Assembly (NCBI GenBank): GCA_963703315.1
Contig: OY969811.1
Location: 1,632,001 to 1,696,000, forward strand
Length of the DNA: 64,000 bases
Direction of reading: 5' to 3'
DNA from: an uncultured cyanobacterium
Lineage (GTDB): Bacteria; Cyanobacteriota; Cyanobacteriia; Pseudanabaenales; Pseudanabaenaceae
The notes under the pieces are model-generated. The model was not told the DNA's origin, did not search any database, and was given only the letters and a program-made list of their open reading frames with translations. Shown here in pieces: positions 4,841-17,996 of this stretch. The stretch's first letter is position 1. Every line of letters starts with the position of its first letter. The position numbers and the translations under genes were made by a program.

Positions 4841-5035
4841 CTATTTGATTTCTTTGTGAACGGTGTGAGAGTTGCAATGGGGGCAGAACTTTTTGAGTTC
4901 TAATCTTGCAGTGGTATTACGGCGATTTTTCATGGTCGTATAACGAGATACACCAGGCGATCGCTTATTGGCATTGGTGCGACATTCGGTGCACTCTAGC
5001 GTAATAACGAGACGGACACCTTTGTTTTTAGCCAT
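4841..5035 (-). CDS. rpmG: 50S ribosomal protein L33
   Basis: LECTEC...[21 protein letters not shown]. Confidence 0.98.
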
Positions 5036-5243
5036 TTTTGTTAGTTGTGAGATTACTTAAAAGTGCGATCTACAATTGTTACACAAAACTAATCAAAAGC
5101 CCAAGTTAAATTTCAAAAAATCCAAAAAATAAATCAAACTTATAGATGTCCTATCCAATCCCCCATCAACAGCAATCATCTATTCAGTCCATATAGCCAG
5201 TAAAAAACACATCAACCAGCGATCGCCTATCCAATCCCCATAA

Positions 5244-5321
5244 CTAGTGAAGGTTTTCTAAGTCTGCTAAGTCTTGCAGTCTGCCAGATGCTAGTTTGTT
5301 TTTCTTGAGATTATCAAGATC
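5244..5321 (-). pseudogene. C-terminal relic of a nucleotidyltransferase-like (DUF6036-type) gene
   Basis: Translates DLDNLKKNKLASGRLQDLADLENLH*, fused directly to RM-tail repeat R5. Confidence 0.5.
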
Positions 5322-5397
5322 GTTGATAGAGTTTGTAAACTAAGCGATCGCACTCCTTTTCTAACTCGCTCGTATCAGCATGGTGATCGCCTTTTTT
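5322..5397 (-). repeat. RM 3'-tail repeat R5 (truncated)
   Basis: Encodes KKGDHHADTSELEKECDRLVYKLYQ; near-identical to the copy at 7104-7275. Confidence 0.9.
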
Positions 5398-5527
5398 GAT
5401 GTTCATCGCTAAATCGGTAAGTACCTCAATCGAATTGAAACATCGCTTACGGACATAATCACGCCGTTTGTAAGTTCTGTGGCATAGTCATTTAAAATTG
5501 CTAACAAATGACGGTTAACTACTTCTC

Positions 5528-6594
5528 GGCACTGGTCATTGAATTAGTGGTATGAGAAAATAGAGGCAGAGGAAAGGAGAAAGCTATGGAATGCCCCCAC
5601 TGCCAGAGCCAAAAGATCATCAAAAATGGCAAACATCATCACCAAGATGGCAAAGCTATCCAGAACTATTTGTGTAAAGGATGCGGCAAGAGATTTAGTG
5701 AAAGGACAGGAACGCCAATGTCAAGGCTGAGAACACCAGCGAGTGTCGTATCCTTAGCGCTAAAGATGAGGAGTGAAGGGATGGGAATCAGAGCCAGTGG
5801 CAGAGTCCTCGAAAAATCCCATGTCAGCATCATGAGATGGGAGCAAAAATTGGCAACCCAGTCACAGCAATGGAGTCCAGATGCCCCAGCAGGAGGAGAT
5901 ATAACAGTCGAGGGAGATGAGGTTTACACTCGCGTAGGCGAGAACCTTCCCCCCCTCAAAGTCAAAAGGATGGACAGTGACATTCATTGAGCGTAAGAGT
6001 CGCTATTGGATTGAGGCAAGGGTAGGACTCAAAACCACTGAATTATTTACTAAAGCAACCAAAACAGCATGGCAATGGGCAAAGGCAAGTCAATACATCC
6101 GATGGTTTACCGATGGCGAAAGACGCTATGCCCAACAACTATGGCAAATGGCAAGTGTGCGCCTCAAATCCACTGAAGTAAGTCGTGAGTATAGACATCG
6201 CAAGGTATGGCGACATGGCTTAGAAGTTGCGATCAAAATTAAAAGTTCACAGGGAAATCGTCGGGTCGAATGGCTCAAACCTGAGCATCCCTATACGGCT
6301 ATTAGCGACAAGTGTGACATTCATGCCAATCACAATGAAGCTAACAACAGTGCTTTGAGAAGGAGATGTAGTGCTTATCGTCGCAGACAAAACCTATATG
6401 CGAAGAATACCGAAGGATTACAACGAGCAGTCACTGTGCAAAGATTAGTTCACAACTGGGTGAGACCTCATGTGGGCTTAGGGAAGAATAAGACTCCAGT
6501 TATGGCGATCGGGCTATATCATCGACCGCTTTCCATGCTGGAGTTGCTTTCACTACGAGGCTTTCACTCCCTCACGATTTAACTGACCAGTGCC
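5528..6594 (+). mobile_element. IS1-family insertion sequence
   Basis: Terminal IRs GGCACTGGTCA / TGACCAGTGCC; 8-bp TSD TACTTCTC at 5520-5527 and 6595-6602. Confidence 0.92.
5586..6582 (+). CDS. IS1-family transposase in two frames (5586-5990 zinc ribbon/HTH; ~5950-6582 DDE part)
   Basis: CPHC...CKGC zinc ribbon, EGDE, FTDG, NHNE motifs; frame change at the C7 run 5949-5955. Confidence 0.85.
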
Positions 6595-6842
6595 TACTTC
6601 TCGGCTTACATTTCCTAAACGAAATAAAATAACGCTGGGTAGGCTTTCACCACTAATTGCTAATAGCTGGGCAAAGTCTAAATCTACGGTCAGTAATATT
6701 CGTTCTTCTTGGCGAGCTTTTTCTAAAATATTGGGATCTGTCATCTTTTCTAGATTCTCTTCAATCAGGTGGATTGCGTCATAACCTTGTTCTCTCAAGA
6801 GTGCAATTGTGCGGGGAGAGATGCCCATATCGCCTAAGAATT

Positions 6843-7091
6843 TCATACTGCTTGAGGGATTTGCCAAAAGATGACTCGCTCTTGGGTGAGCCAAGCGGCA
6901 TATCTAAGCGCTTGCTGGATGTCTTCTAGTTCGAGATAGGGATAGTCTTCGATGATTTCTGCTGTTGATAAGCCGTTGGCGATGAGGTTGATGACTACGG
7001 ATACGGGTATCCGCATTCCGCGAATGCAAGCTTGACCTGCCATGATTTTTGGGTCAAAGGTTATGCGATCTAGTCCTGCTATTGCTTTCAT
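6843..7091 (-). CDS. DUF433-family antitoxin
   Basis: RITFDPKIMAGQACIRGMRIPV...EDYPYLELEDIQQAL; ATGA overlap with the DUF5615 gene. Confidence 0.9.
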   Translation of the reverse strand: MKAIAGLDRITFDPKIMAGQACIRGMRIPVSVVINLIANGLSTAEIIEDYPYLELEDIQQALRYAAWLTQERVIFWQIPQAV

Positions 7092-7103
7092 TGTTTTTGC
7101 CTC

Positions 7104-7275
7104 TTATTCTATTTTAATGGCTGTGTATTCTTGTTCTGTTAGTTCAAATTCTGGGTCGATCACTTTTACTTCGTCAGAGGTGAGTTGATAGAGTTTGTAA
7201 ACTAAGCGATCGCATTCTTTTTCTAGTTCGCTCGTATCAGCATGGCGATCGCCTTTTTTAGCGGGTGAGAATTTT
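7104..7275 (-). repeat. RM 3'-tail repeat R4
   Basis: Encodes (ILT)AKKGDRHADTSELEKECDRLVYKLYQLTSDEVKVIDPEFELTEQEYTAIKIE*. Confidence 0.92.
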
Positions 7276-7291
7276 TATTATCCAGTTTAAA

Positions 7292-7628
7292 TTAACTTTG
7301 TTGTTGATATTCTGTGATGATATCCCTAATCTCGTCAGCTTCAATGTCTGACTGTTCAGACTTAGGATAAATAGTTAGTAAAACTATTCCTGTTAATGTT
7401 TTGAGATAATAAATTAGGCGATAACCTCCACTTTTTCCTTTCTTAATATCACTATTTTTAACTCTTAGTTTAAACACAGGATAGCCAATCCCTGATATTT
7501 GATTCTCCTTGCTCTAGTTGGTTGATAACTGGTTGGAGGTCTTGACGAATGTTTCGATATTTTTTGGCAAGAGTGCGTATATTTTTCTGAAAAGCTGGTG
7601 AGGCTTCAATTTGGATTGGGTTAGTCAT
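7292..7628 (-). pseudogene. RelE/ParE-family toxin, frameshifted
   Basis: MTNPIQIEASPAFQKNIRTLAKKYRNIRQDLQP...GE, then a frame change, then QISGIGYPVFKLRVKNSDIKKGKSGGYRLIYY; span 337 nt is not a multiple of 3. Confidence 0.8.
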
Positions 7629-7854
7629 TTTCTAGCCCTTCCCAAAGTTGAGATAGTGGAATTGTTTGACCTGTCATCGCTTCGTGCCATGCTTGGCGAA
7701 AGTCAGATATTATTTCTTCTTTAGTGAAGTCTTCTGGTGATTCTGGAATCAGTACGATGATTTCTACTCGACTATTTTTGTTTTTCAGTAGTGGACTGTC
7801 TAGGGTTATTTGCCCTTGTTCGTTGATGGTTGCCATTGCTTTAAGTGCTTTCAT
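7621..7854 (-). CDS. Putative antitoxin paired with the RelE pseudogene
   Basis: 77 aa, ATINEQGQITLD...FRQAWHEAMTGQTIPLSQLW; overlaps the toxin start. Confidence 0.7.
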   Translation of the reverse strand: MKALKAMATINEQGQITLDSPLLKNKNSRVEIIVLIPESPEDFTKEEIISDFRQAWHEAMTGQTIPLSQLWEGLEND

Positions 7855-7878
7855 GTTTTTATTCCTTAGTTAGAAGTT

Positions 7879-8027
7879 TTACTTTGTTTTAATTACTGTG
7901 TATTCTTGTTCTGTTAGTTCAAATTCTGGGTCGATCGCTTTTACTTCGTCAATAGGTGAGTTGATAGAGTTTGTAAACTAAATTATCGATCACCTTTTCT
8001 AGTTCGCTCGTATCAGCATTAGGATTA
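7879..8027 (-). repeat. RM 3'-tail repeat R3
   Basis: Encodes NPNADTSELEKVIDNLVYKLYQLTY/(+1 nt)/DEVKAIDPEFELTEQEYTVIKTK*. Confidence 0.9.
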
Positions 8028-8031
8028 ATGT

Positions 8032-8397
8032 TTACCTCTTTCTGATTCTAAATTTATTCTGATCGACAATTACAGTTGCACCAATTATCTCTGGCAAATT
8101 AACTTGACTAATAAATTGCTCTAATACTTGCCGAATTTCTATAGCGATCGCTTCAAAGGGAAATCTTAAAATAATTAAACCTCAATGTGTATTTGGTGGA
8201 TAGTTTTTAATGTTTGACCATCCGAGATCGCGGCTAATGATTATTCTTTGTTCTGTTTGGGCGAATATAAATATTTCAGGATCTTTTGTGCCGCTAAGTC
8301 CAGATGTTTTGATGTGAATGGCATCATGCCCTTTGTCGTTGAGTAAAGTTTCTAAAATAAGTGGACAATCTTCATCGATTAGAAAACGTAATTTCAA
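8032..8397 (-). pseudogene. DUF5615 PIN-like toxin with in-frame nonsense codon
   Basis: MKLRFLIDED...IIISRDLGW...NTH*GLIILRF...KFRIRKR*; 122 codons with an internal TGA at 8182-8184. Confidence 0.85.
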
Positions 8398-8636
8398 CTT
8401 ACTTTCTCCATTGAATAGACTGTTTCATAGTTTAAAAGCTCGGAAAAGTAAGCAAGTGAGGCAAGAATCTGTTCGTGGGTAACTGCATATTCTTGAATTA
8501 CTTCGTCATAGGTCATGCCACCAGCGAGGGAGCCGATAATTATGGCGATCGGAAGACGAGTTCCTTTTAGTACGGGTTTACCATGTTGGATTTCGTTGTC
8601 AATGGTAATTACATCAGTTAGTATACTTTTTTTCAT
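8394..8636 (-). CDS. DUF433-family antitoxin
   Basis: ITIDNEIQHGKPVLKGTRLPI...GMTYDEVIQEY. Confidence 0.9.
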   Translation of the reverse strand: MKKSILTDVITIDNEIQHGKPVLKGTRLPIAIIIGSLAGGMTYDEVIQEYAVTHEQILASLAYFSELLNYETVYSMEKVS

Positions 8637-8699
8637 AATCTATATTCCTTATAAAAGCTAAACATTTTTACAAAAATCTACACCTTATCTTTTCCCTTG

Positions 8700-8820
8700 T
8701 CACCTCTCTCCTTCTACTATTTTAATCTCTTCTTCTGTCAATCCGTAAAGTTGATAGACTAAACGATCGCACTCCTTTTCTAATTCGCTCGTATCAGCAT
8801 GGCGATCGCCTTTTTTAGTA
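8700..8820 (-). repeat. RM 3'-tail repeat R2 (alternative ending)
   Basis: Encodes KKGDRHADTSELEKECDRLVYQLYGLTEEEIKIVEGER*, a typical Type IIG/Eco57I-like C-terminus. Confidence 0.9.
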
Positions 8821-8825
8821 GTTTG

Positions 8826-9098
8826 TCATGGTTTAAGCAAATTGACTGGATAAGCTCGAACTGCTTCGTCTACTGTCGCGATCGCCATATTATTTTGTAT
8901 AGCTTGACAAATAAGCATTCTGTCAAAGGGATCACGATGTAAAGATGGGAGTTTGGCTAGTTGAGTTACACTGGCTTGATCGAGGTCAAGATTAAGAATT
9001 TGATGGCGATCGCAGTGTTTAGGGAAATATATTTCAGGTGATTCTGGTAATGGTAATTTGCCTAGCTGATATTTAACAATGGCTTCCCAAGTTGACAC
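8826..9098 (-). pseudogene. VapC/PIN toxin lacking its N-terminus
   Basis: WEAIVKYQLGKL and HRDPFDRMLICQA are present but the N-terminal LLDT catalytic motif is absent. Confidence 0.8.
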
Positions 9099-9343
9099 AA
9101 CATTTCTTCTGGTAGCGGTGCATCAAAGTCTTCAGGGACGACAAATTCTCCAACACATAAACCAAATGGGCGTTGTTTTTTATTCTTTGTTGTAACTGCT
9201 TTGGATGAGTTTTGATCTTTTAAGGTTTCTGTTGTCTGGATGTCTTCGAGTGTATCTAGGTCTTCTGCAAGAATCCGAATTAGTTTAACTTTTTCCGTTA
9301 CAGTGAGTTTTCGGGCGGCGGGTAGTAGTTCGGCGAGTGTCAT
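9062..9343 (-). CDS. VapB-like antitoxin (extreme C-terminus altered by the deletion into vapC)
   Basis: RPFGLCVGEFVVPEDFDAPLPEE motif of VapC-associated antitoxins. Confidence 0.75.
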   Translation of the reverse strand: MTLAELLPAARKLTVTEKVKLIRILAEDLDTLEDIQTTETLKDQNSSKAVTTKNKKQRPFGLCVGEFVVPEDFDAPLPEEMLCQLGKPLLNIS

Positions 9344-9354
9344 TGTTTTACCTC

Positions 9355-9908
9355 TTACTCTGTTTTAATTGCTATATATTCTTGTTCTGTTAGTTCAAAT
9401 TCTGGGTCGATGACAGAGGCAATCGCAGGTTCCGCAATTTGTTTATAAAAGAAATCTGTCTTCTTGCCACTCAGCCGCCCATCTTCAAAATCCTTAAACT
9501 TCTTAACTAAAGCCTTATCGCTAAAAAACAACTCCTCAAATATCTTCGCATCAAAAATAAACCACTCATAAATATTGGTCACCACCAAATGCTTAACCCC
9601 AATATTTCCATGCTTCTCCTTTTCACGCAAAAAATATAAAACCAACTGCTGCAACGCCTTAGCATTGAGATTGTCAACTTTCGGCATTTCCGCGCTATTA
9701 GTTTTAGATAGCGATCGCCGTAATAGGTCTTTTTGAGAAACTCAATCAGCAAATTTTTATTAAATTCTTCATCCTTTTTGCTGTCACAAAGCTCAAGCAT
9801 CCGCCCCAAATTAGCCTTAAACCCCTGAATATTCTCAGCATCAGGTTTGATTTTTAAGTCAGTCCTGTTTAACGCTTGCTTAGGTTCGAGCTTATTGACG
9901 ATCATCAA
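9355..9908 (-). pseudogene. Type IIG restriction-modification gene remnant (N-terminus joined to last codons = tail R1, 9355-9411)
   Basis: EEFNKNLLIEFLKKTYY and NAKALQQLVLYFLRE...VTNIYEWFIFDA match the N-terminus of Eco57I-like fused RM enzymes; a frameshifting deletion next to HIP1 at ~9711, then a jump to IDPEFELTEQEYIAIKTE*. Confidence 0.75.
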
Positions 9909-10206
9909 ACTTTATATTTAGCGAAATTATTGGCTAGTCCCATTATGCCTAATTTTGCAACCAGCGATCGCCCCCAATTGGTTGGTAAATCTACTCGCGC
10001 CCATTTACAATGCGATCGCCACACTCATAAACCTATCAACAAGCAAGCGGCGATCGCTTATTGGCATTGTTTCGACATTCTGAAGAAATTTTTTGCGTTA
10101 ATTCAACTGAATAACAAAGAAACTAGATTCGTGCAAAGTTATACAGAATAAAACTTTGGTGCGTTGTAACGTCAATTTTATAGAACTAGACACAAGAGTG
10201 ATATTT

Positions 10207-14402: not shown

Positions 14403-14457
14403 AAAAACCAAGAAGAGAGTTGCGGCGCTTCGCGCCGCAACTCTCTTCTTGGTTTTT
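14403..14457. repeat. Perfect intergenic palindrome (REP-like/terminator), arm shared with 35918-35960
   Basis: aaaaaccaagaagagagttgcggcgc-ttc-gcgccgcaactctcttcttggttttt. Confidence 0.8.
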
Positions 14458-17939: not shown

Positions 17940-17996
17940 AGGACATAAAACTAGAAGGCGAGTTGCAGCGCAACTCGCCTTCTAGTTTTATGTCCT
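17940..17996. repeat. Long intergenic palindrome
   Basis: aggacataaaactagaaggcgagttgc-agc-gcaactcgccttctagttttatgtcct. Confidence 0.8.

Follow-up and report, generated by a model that had tools for sequence, protein, structure and literature searches.

Toxin–antitoxin cassettes alternating with copies of the 3′ end of a Type IIG restriction–modification gene in a genus of freshwater cyanobacteria

The 64,000-nucleotide stretch analysed here (the window), positions 1,632,001-1,696,000 of contig OY969811.1 (GCA_963703315.1) from an uncultured cyanobacterium of the Pseudanabaenaceae, carries a decayed example of an array that is common in its genus, with the Type IIG restriction–modification (RM) gene gutted and 4/4 toxins broken. 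In a typical array such an RM gene is followed by up to nine copies of its own 3′ end, here called tails, which alternate with toxin–antitoxin (TA) cassettes. The tail is present in 36 of 47 relatives from this genus of freshwater cyanobacteria, where the cassette pool comprises about 15 TA types in shuffled order. Sequence comparisons indicate a permuted tail as the unit that moves, consisting of a 3′ half-tail, the antitoxin gene, the toxin gene and a 5′ half-tail. A literature search found no published description of this arrangement, and the terms 'recombination' and 'Type IIG' have no matches in the available part of Payne et al. 2024.

The array in the window

The features are listed in minus-strand order.

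9964..9971, minus strand: HIP1 site about 60 bp upstream of the RM start
9355..9908, minus strand: Type IIG RM gene remnant, DUF7149 N-terminus fused to the last 19 codons
9355..9413, minus strand: tail R1, 3′ half only, LONG type
8826..9343, minus strand: cassette 1, VapB-like antitoxin (9062-9343) and PIN toxin
8700..8820, minus strand: tail R2, SHORT type, open frame
8032..8636, minus strand: cassette 2, DUF433 (8394-8636) and DUF5615
7879..8025, minus strand: tail R3, LONG type, beginning within the first HIP1 position, with a 1-nt frameshift
7292..7854, minus strand: cassette 3, RelN-family antitoxin (7621-7854) and RelE toxin
7104..7275, minus strand: tail R4, complete LONG type, core bounded by two HIP1 sites
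5409..7091, minus strand: cassette 4, DUF433 (6843-7091) and DUF5615 (6846-5409), interrupted by an IS
5528..6594, plus strand: IS1-family element within cassette 4, not part of the cassette
5322..5397, minus strand: tail R5, truncated, with the 5′ part and the core
5244..5321, minus strand: relic of a fifth cassette, 3′ end of a DUF6036 nucleotidyltransferase gene

All five tails are direct minus-strand copies, as the preliminary description of this DNA had proposed; they match one another with blastn E values of 1e-14 to 1e-46, their translations agree with the peptide repeats claimed, and they are 76-93% identical to a reference copy over 76 nt. Tails R2-R5 begin 6, 7, 17 and 12 bp past the natural stop codon of the toxin gene before them, within the limit of about 20 bp originally noted. 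The gene families (PIN, DUF433, DUF5615, RelE and nucleotidyltransferase, the last being the DUF6036 relic) are also confirmed, and the cassette 3 antitoxin is assigned to a RelN-type family via a homologue.

In the RM remnant a deletion of about 3.3 kb joins the N-terminal part to the last 19 codons, and a second, of 94 bp, adjoins a HIP1 site at 9707/9708. Cassette 1 has a deletion of about 135 bp spanning the antitoxin/toxin junction (the intact family unit is 671 bp), the DUF5615 gene of cassette 2 has a premature TGA at 8182, and the RelE gene of cassette 3 has lost 11 bp. The DUF6036 relic retains 88% identity over 68 nt, with HIP1 next to it at 5219-5226. The IS1-family element has 11-bp terminal inverted repeats, an 8-bp target duplication and nine more copies in the genome; this element and the broken toxins are additions to the earlier account. 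A promoter and terminator scan of 5000-10200 was uninformative (15 against 12.9 expected; 3 against 3.9 expected).

The tail as the end of the RM gene

Intact homologues and an alignment to M.BseCI agree that the repeat derives, as had been suggested, from a Type IIG RM gene, whose 3′ end it represents. An intact homologue matches PADLOC REase_MTase_IIG (E 1e-293 over 2-1252), and such homologues, with the domains DUF7149, DUF7814, Eco57I and TaqI_C, are single-chain nuclease-methyltransferases with a C-terminal TRD, the window copy being a remnant of one. The tail aligns to the final helices of M.BseCI 7qw5. These last ~50 codons, encoding the helices behind the variable TRD, are the sole conserved sequence at the RM 3′ end; the TRDs are hypervariable, with 16-41% identity in most pairs against 59-85% in the MTase part (DUF7149 group). 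The 17 RM termini divide into nine LONG and eight SHORT, with seven different first cassettes behind them; the first cassette provides the C-terminus of the RM enzyme.

Untranslated tail copies are coding-like, with an open frame in 45/50 and 25/26 and pN/pS of 0.16-0.44. The tail is not a MITE or REP repeat, in keeping with the original reading: its conservation is of coding type, and its own genome holds only seven matches, at two RM-linked loci.

The mobile unit and its route of exchange

The unit first described, a tail plus a TA pair, has to be redrawn as the permuted form given above, with the crossover inside the tail. By comparative pattern each cassette behaves as a discrete unit with part of the site at either end; cassettes are constant in length and 87-98% identical in nucleotide sequence within most families. 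The proposal that the tail is a repeated exchange site is supported, in that the tail's 3′ type follows the downstream cassette and its 5′ junction the upstream one. In 89 of 128 tails the mutual information between 3′ type and downstream cassette is 0.83 (null 0.13, p 1e-4), compared with 0.157 for the upstream cassette (null 0.159) and 0.26 for the array (null 0.32); for 11 segments, composite or singleton, the cassette label was assigned by hand, and p-values throughout are too optimistic because the genomes are related and many come from short-read assemblies. Agreement with the downstream cassette extends to 80 of 81 tails from 35 further loci, and the 5′ junction is constant for each upstream cassette (+1 in 11/12 for c2/YafQ, −2 in 6/7 for c7). 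A column scan of 111 of 118 tails (10 of 128 were unalignable, and the divergent loci L052, L055 and L065 were excluded here and from the core tests) shows that positions up to +9 follow the upstream cassette, +17 to +28 the array and those from +44 the downstream cassette. Since the two ends of the tail track different cassettes in this way, exchange falls within a core of ∼35 bp, and by their pattern crossovers lie in the ∼35-45 bp common to LONG and SHORT tails, between two HIP1/GATC sites.

The predicted cassette polymorphism among relatives is pronounced in both content and order, with 65 different adjacencies among 77 neighbour pairs. Repeat-driven artefacts of short-read assembly might mimic such variety, since many loci stop at contig breaks within arrays, but this is very improbable: orders differ among single- or few-contig genomes (L031, L038, L048, L067, L254-L257), separate assemblies with 100% identical cassettes have the same order (L237 and L249 versus L036 and L054; L243 and L246 versus L040 and L039), and the contigs of run X1 match the window without differences across the segments between tails. 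The polymorphism is not tied to the Rieske-rpmG interval, as had been supposed: the interval is empty in all 14 relatives, out of 24, whose fetched locus includes both genes, and arrays in relatives occupy many other loci.

We consider it probable that the array arises by host homologous recombination between tails, perhaps assisted by HIP1, and that addiction retains the cassettes. The last ∼50 codons of the RM gene would act as a short homology platform. A rare illegitimate join, in many cases at HIP1, would once have given each TA pair a 3′ half-tail before it and a 5′ half-tail behind it. The units could then loop out and re-enter at whichever tail, be exchanged unequally between chromosome copies inside one cell, or arrive with pieces of arrays taken up from other strains. 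Crossovers within the core would keep the RM frame intact and, as partly shown, would convert neighbouring cores; TRD swaps could take the first cassette along, as in one clear case, and cassettes would persist if an active TA pair is costly to lose. A 1.1-kb TRD-tail-cassette block has 99.6% identity between two genomes, in which it sits at different loci, against 84.5% upstream of it.

The cassettes have the make-up of Type II TA systems, a small antitoxin gene followed by a PIN, DUF5615, RelE/YafQ, HEPN or nucleotidyltransferase gene, and five of these small leading genes match no known family. Among 138 cassettes, damage affects the gene in the toxin position in 40, the antitoxin in 10 and the antitoxin alone in one, a pattern suggesting that, if these genes are indeed toxic, hosts escape addiction by breaking the toxin first.

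Several observations weigh against homologous recombination. The stretch common to the tails is only ∼45-70 bp, which is short for RecA, and neither a circle nor a single event was seen in the contigs examined. Among the contigs of four of the 22 listed runs there are no single-cassette circles, and the joints 9339-7088, 8000-5370 and 7269-8690 fit other strains' cassette orders or repeat artefacts.

Phages were rejected as vectors (36 pattern matches in viral contigs, 0/36 with a tail or cassette), as were plasmids (five records with single TA genes only, at 67-74%, none spanning an array), and single matches outside cyanobacteria contain no real tail.

The narrow crossover window bounded by HIP1/GATC would also be expected from a site-specific process. 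In that case a HIP1-directed, RecA-independent reaction, site-specific or methylation-guided, would join cassettes at the two HIP1/GATC sites and copy the core at each insertion, like a CRISPR repeat, with the enzyme encoded elsewhere or supplied by the RM nuclease itself. We regard this as rather unlikely. It fits the first HIP1 site, which is exactly GCGATCGC in 75 of 93 tails, and the excess of identical neighbouring cores (14/68 pairs against 4.2 expected; among closed or near-closed genomes 9/30 against 1.8, with p 4e-4 by order permutation). It fits also the growth of core mismatch with rank gap (1.8, 2.1, 2.6, 3.6), the breaks at the second HIP1 in several array-end tails, and the evidence tying HIP1 to site-specific recombination that is cited in the accessible text of Elhai 2015 (PMC4390886). 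However, cores differ in 80 of 99 pairs of neighbouring tails, cassettes without the first HIP1 at their junction still shuffle (433s/5615c, MNT/HEPNb, some c14), array-specific variants reach into the 3′ half in L048 and L052, as gene conversion predicts, and HIP1 has a density of 1.8 per kb regardless. In 12 new loci core sharing between neighbours was not reproduced in the mean mismatch (2.97 versus 3.07), which counts against core conversion by homologous recombination as well, and identical cores numbered 5/31 against 1.9 (p 0.04); with most neighbours differing and so weak a replicate, core copying as strict duplication is rejected.

Nor was a candidate recombinase found. The earlier statement that no integrase is in view withstands profile searches of the window's own genome and inspection of locus maps. 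IntI (TIGR02249) reaches at best 32 bits against a cut-off of 265 in this complete genome, no tyrosine recombinase lies near the array (PF00589 matches are >100 kb away), there is no match to the resolvase profile PF00239, and no dedicated recombinase ORF is visible by eye in 40 locus maps, whose flanking clusters are partly annotated. Five tail folds gave no attC-like hairpin (z −0.3 to −1.5, by folding only, with no attC model). ComEC is present.

Another possibility is that repeated RM/TRD replacement leaves the arrays behind as passive scars. Each new RM 3′ end would then arrive together with the TA pair next to it, entering through homology on one side and through an illegitimate join on the other; the old tail would be stranded, and the cassettes would never be mobile as units. 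Hypervariable TRDs accord with this, as do the TRD and first cassette that travel together in L057/L035 and the RM gene with a TA pair and no second tail in other genera (L086). Replacement predicts variable junctions, yet junctions are fixed per cassette family, and related TRDs have different first cassettes. Single arrays contain near-identical duplicates (99.0% and 99.9%) at non-adjacent positions, and damage shows no clear rise by rank (8/30, 6/24, 7/17, 4/12, 6/17), results that likewise lend no support to the strict entry at the RM end and downstream ageing originally envisaged; a polar core variant is seen in array L033. We judge the passive reading improbable. The fixed junctions largely refute it as sole mechanism, and RM/TRD replacement with an illegitimate join is probably the origin of the cassettes.

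Relation to other systems

Integrons hold small gene cassettes in shuffled order, with the site split across cassette ends, TA cargo and a shared pool. The array here has these features in common with them, as a comparative pattern, but differs in having neither IntI in the window's own genome nor an attC-like hairpin, and in that its site is protein-coding and completes a gene. It could, though this is rather unlikely, be an integrase-free integron analogue in which methylated HIP1 directs exchange within the tail, each insertion copies the core, and the RM enzyme is completed by the TA cassette in front; changes of restriction specificity would then be coupled to a rotating TA arsenal, giving HIP1 a natural, assayable function. 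The pdif modules of Acinetobacter, some carrying TA genes, are reportedly reshuffled by a host system without a recombinase of their own, a likeness to the TA modules here, although pdif sites are 28-bp XerC/D sites and none of this type was recognised here.

In Rhs displacement arrays, as described in the part of Jackson et al. 2009 available (PMC2935791), strings of repeated gene fragments lie behind an intact gene, homologous recombination through circles is proposed, and the pool is shared across strains. Here too fragments of the upstream gene are repeated behind it. Rhs, however, swaps a variable protein tip with core fragments of varying length, whereas here the extreme end is conserved, junctions are cassette-fixed and the cargo is independent TA operons; the toxins are separate genes, unlike the fused tips of Rhs/CDI, and only two short end variants swap. 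The tvr (SpnIV) locus, from the accessible text of Kwun et al. 2018 (PMC6265443), is a Type I RM locus with direct repeats, one TA pair inside and its own recombinase TvrR, in which excision-reintegration through circles is partly recombinase-independent. Direct repeats and TA genes at an RM locus recur here, and excision and re-entry may likewise run through circles, but tvr shuffles TRD segments with TvrR, whereas the cassettes here consist of TA operons and have no recombinase attached to them. For Type IIG enzymes, allelic diversity of the TRD with recombination at conserved flanks (Furuta et al. 2010, PMC2853133), and RM insertion with long target duplication and repeats without mobile-element genes (Furuta and Kobayashi 2012, PMC3467074), both taken from the parts of these papers at hand, likewise have counterparts here in TRD diversity, conserved flanks and repeats. 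There, RM genes or TRDs move, rather than other genes arrayed downstream of an RM gene, and the word 'toxin' is absent from the available main text of the 2010 paper.

An array of shuffling cassettes that is built on the conserved coding end of a gene, and for which no dedicated integrase was found, would be missed by searches based on integrases or attC. It would account for the many TA pairs that a cyanobacterial genus has gathered next to its restriction genes and for their passage between families, and it allows a test of selfish against defensive roles. HIP1 increases homologous integration in Synechococcus 7002, according to the text available of bioRxiv 2024.09.10.611283, and its role in recombination, a long-open question, becomes directly testable because the crossover is mapped, by the patterns above, to ∼35 bp between two HIP1 sites, with dozens of natural variants. 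By eye, in 11 loci and the window, similarity between RM leaders of different loci starts, in several loci, at the HIP1-like site listed above at 9964..9971.

The tail and the Type IIG gene

Toxin-antitoxin (TA) arrays built on the tails of restriction-modification (RM) genes are real. The five tail repeats of the window (R1-R5, minus strand) lie where the preliminary description located them, with mutual matches of E 1e-14 to 1e-46, and its reading of the tail as an RM C-terminus is upheld by intact homologues of 1227-1305 aa, all Type IIG enzymes, that terminate in exactly that peptide. The tail lies downstream of the TaqI_C recognition domain and can be aligned to the final helices of M.BseCI. 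In pairwise comparison of 10 long RM proteins, identity in the recognition region is 16-41% for the majority of pairs, whereas the methylase part reaches 59-85% in the eight of DUF7149 type; the tail is thus a conserved island at the gene end. Untranslated tail copies are mostly open, with pN/pS of 0.16-0.44 under different transition weights; the underlying counts are inflated by shared ancestry. Such a coding-like state is as expected if these copies pass through the coding position or were recently derived from it.

Other genes also occupy the upstream position at some of the tail-bearing loci mapped in other genomes. In two genomes, at different loci (L034:5065-7738 and L050), a C5 methyltransferase and MvaI/BcnI nuclease pair takes the place of the greater part of the Type IIG gene, immediately ahead of the first tail. 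NACHT or CHAT-TPR genes, not an RM gene, precede the arrays or array relics of L038, L043, L059 and L064. The Type IIG genes of L055 and L065 belong to a second subfamily, whose N-terminus is unrelated (~23% identity); these loci also have pool cassettes, and their tail is diverged and lacks the first HIP1 site.

The array of the window is in decay. Its RM gene is reduced to a DUF7149 start fused to the last 19 codons. All four toxin genes are broken and the antitoxins score intact; of a fifth cassette, a DUF6036 gene's 3' end is left. One toxin is interrupted by an insertion element:

5528-6594, IS1-family element, splits the last toxin of the window array

Four other genome copies of this element are >99% identical and 4-5 are at ~86%. 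At locus L036 the last tail stops at this same end of the IS, and the array there seems split by that IS across two contigs, with at least 11 cassettes judging from L237. Outside the window array, the 4.57-Mb single-contig genome has the tail at a single further site, L066, downstream of an RM gene of 1045 aa that is accompanied by one TA pair. Among 138 cassettes, damage affects 40 toxins and 10 antitoxins, the antitoxin alone in 1, a bias that suggests active toxins from which hosts escape by breaking them.

The cassette as a permuted unit

The segments between tails sort into 13 recurring families and two singletons. The families are of near-constant length and mostly 87-98% identity, and the segments scanned are TA-type pairs, with one 90-aa singleton lacking annotation. 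Their order is shuffled: 77 neighbour pairs include 65 different ones, and orders are close to unique.

The 3' end of the tail has two forms, LONG and SHORT. Across 89 of 128 tails, which of the two is present depends on the downstream cassette (MI 0.83 against a null of 0.13, p 1e-4) and on neither the upstream cassette nor the array. This rule is kept in 80 of 81 cases at 35 further loci, five of them from the same or near-identical strains as the training loci. The tail's 5' junction, in turn, is determined by the upstream cassette, and a column scan (111 of 118 aligned tails) places the upstream-to-downstream switch between +9 and +44, a region flanked by two HIP1/GATC sites. We conclude from this pattern that TA cassettes move as units, as first inferred, but that the unit is not a tail plus a TA pair; it comprises a 3' half-tail, antitoxin, toxin and 5' half-tail. 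It follows that the first cassette, whichever its type, supplies the end of the RM protein; these ends are LONG in nine and SHORT in eight of 17 proteins.

Distribution and polymorphism

Most named records sharing this tail pattern belong to Pseudanabaena. Tail DNA matches 27/36 and 9/11 other genomes of the genus (two sets) and 1/24 genomes of other families, that one having six tails. The tail peptide was matched in 78 of 401 phylum genomes, at most 15 candidates being scored in each, mostly once per RM gene. In other genera, a second coding tail is present at 5 of the 20 RM ends retrieved, two of these with TA genes between. L072, from another genus, holds the same cassettes as the pool at 74-95% protein identity, and a Snowella-labelled MAG contig, possibly a binning error, has a RelE cassette (97% protein identity) preceding four tails with other, putatively TA-like pairs. 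Also in other genera, a second tail comes after a tandem second RM gene (L074:907-8411) or after two larger unannotated genes (L075), layouts resembling the general RM-tail pattern.

The 40 mapped loci have 1-9 tails each, many right behind an RM gene or fragment; some end at contig ends and some show no RM in view. Flanking genes vary widely. The predicted polymorphism of content is found where loci with shared flanks hold different arrays (L041/L057, L035/L065, L037/L044, L051/L063), but not at the proposed Rieske-rpmG site, where the window insertion is private: contigs of sequencing run X2 join straight across it, and in 14 of 24 Rieske-bearing relatives the interval is 54-945 bp without RM or tail, rpmG lying outside the fetched locus in the remaining 10.

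At the insertion's left edge, where likeness to the L033 leader starts, a 32-nt stretch (10049-10080) is 94% identical to the rpmG interior (4956-4987) and ends at rpmG's HIP1 site, a possible trace of entry there.

Exchange, machinery and known systems

The ~35-bp core between the two HIP1/GATC sites tracks the array. Identical neighbours number 14/68 (4.2 expected), 9/30 in closed or near-closed genomes (1.8 expected) and 19/99 overall (6.1 expected); in the 12 new loci alone the mean core mismatch is no lower than the null. In two long-isolated arrays shared variants reach beyond the core. Conversion accompanying homologous exchange accounts for this better than strict duplication does. Near-identical duplicates (99.0% and 99.9%) occur at non-adjacent ranks in two arrays, and cassette damage shows no clear rise with rank counted from the RM end, so that entry solely at that end, as once envisaged, is not borne out. 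A 1.1-kb block that spans the recognition domain, the tail and the first cassette shows 99.6% identity between two loci of two genomes.

As noted at the outset, no integrase is in view: the window's own genome has no integron integrase and no resolvase. Its three tyrosine-recombinase matches are all far from the arrays; an ORF region with two such domain matches (G000:C1:1754120-1755622) is ~115 kb away. ComEC is present. Tail folding gave no notable hairpin, the tail is in none of 36 viral and 5 plasmid matches, and no excision circle or single transfer event was seen in the sequences compared. We consider host homologous recombination the probable route of cassette exchange. HIP1, at 1.8 sites per kb in this genome, is linked to more efficient homologous integration in bioRxiv 2024.09.10.611283 and, less firmly, to site-specific recombination in PMC4390886; that a HIP1-directed reaction moves the cassettes seems rather unlikely. 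Passive scarring by RM replacement probably accounts for the birth of cassettes but leaves the fixed junctions unexplained.

Rhs C-terminal displacement (PMC2935791), the tvr locus (PMC6265443) and integron arrays work similarly, but each has a defining feature that tail arrays lack. Searches of open-access titles and abstracts turned up no account of TA arrays on RM tails. The present analysis adds a closed, nearly TA-only cassette pool, pattern-based proof that its members move as permuted units, a map of the crossover window and a decay that strikes toxins first.

Two further features of the window were seen. Intergenic sequence at 14403-14457 and 17940-17996 contains perfect inverted repeats of 26-27 bp around 3-nt loops; in relatives, similar palindromes occupy the otherwise empty Rieske-rpmG interval as well as some RM leaders. 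Behind another TA pair, of ParE type (1221-1743), come two related small ORFs (region 1221-2515) with a 107-nt direct repeat, 96% identical (1899-2005 and 2348-2454), and no tail close by; at locus L053 a homologous pair comes after the array.
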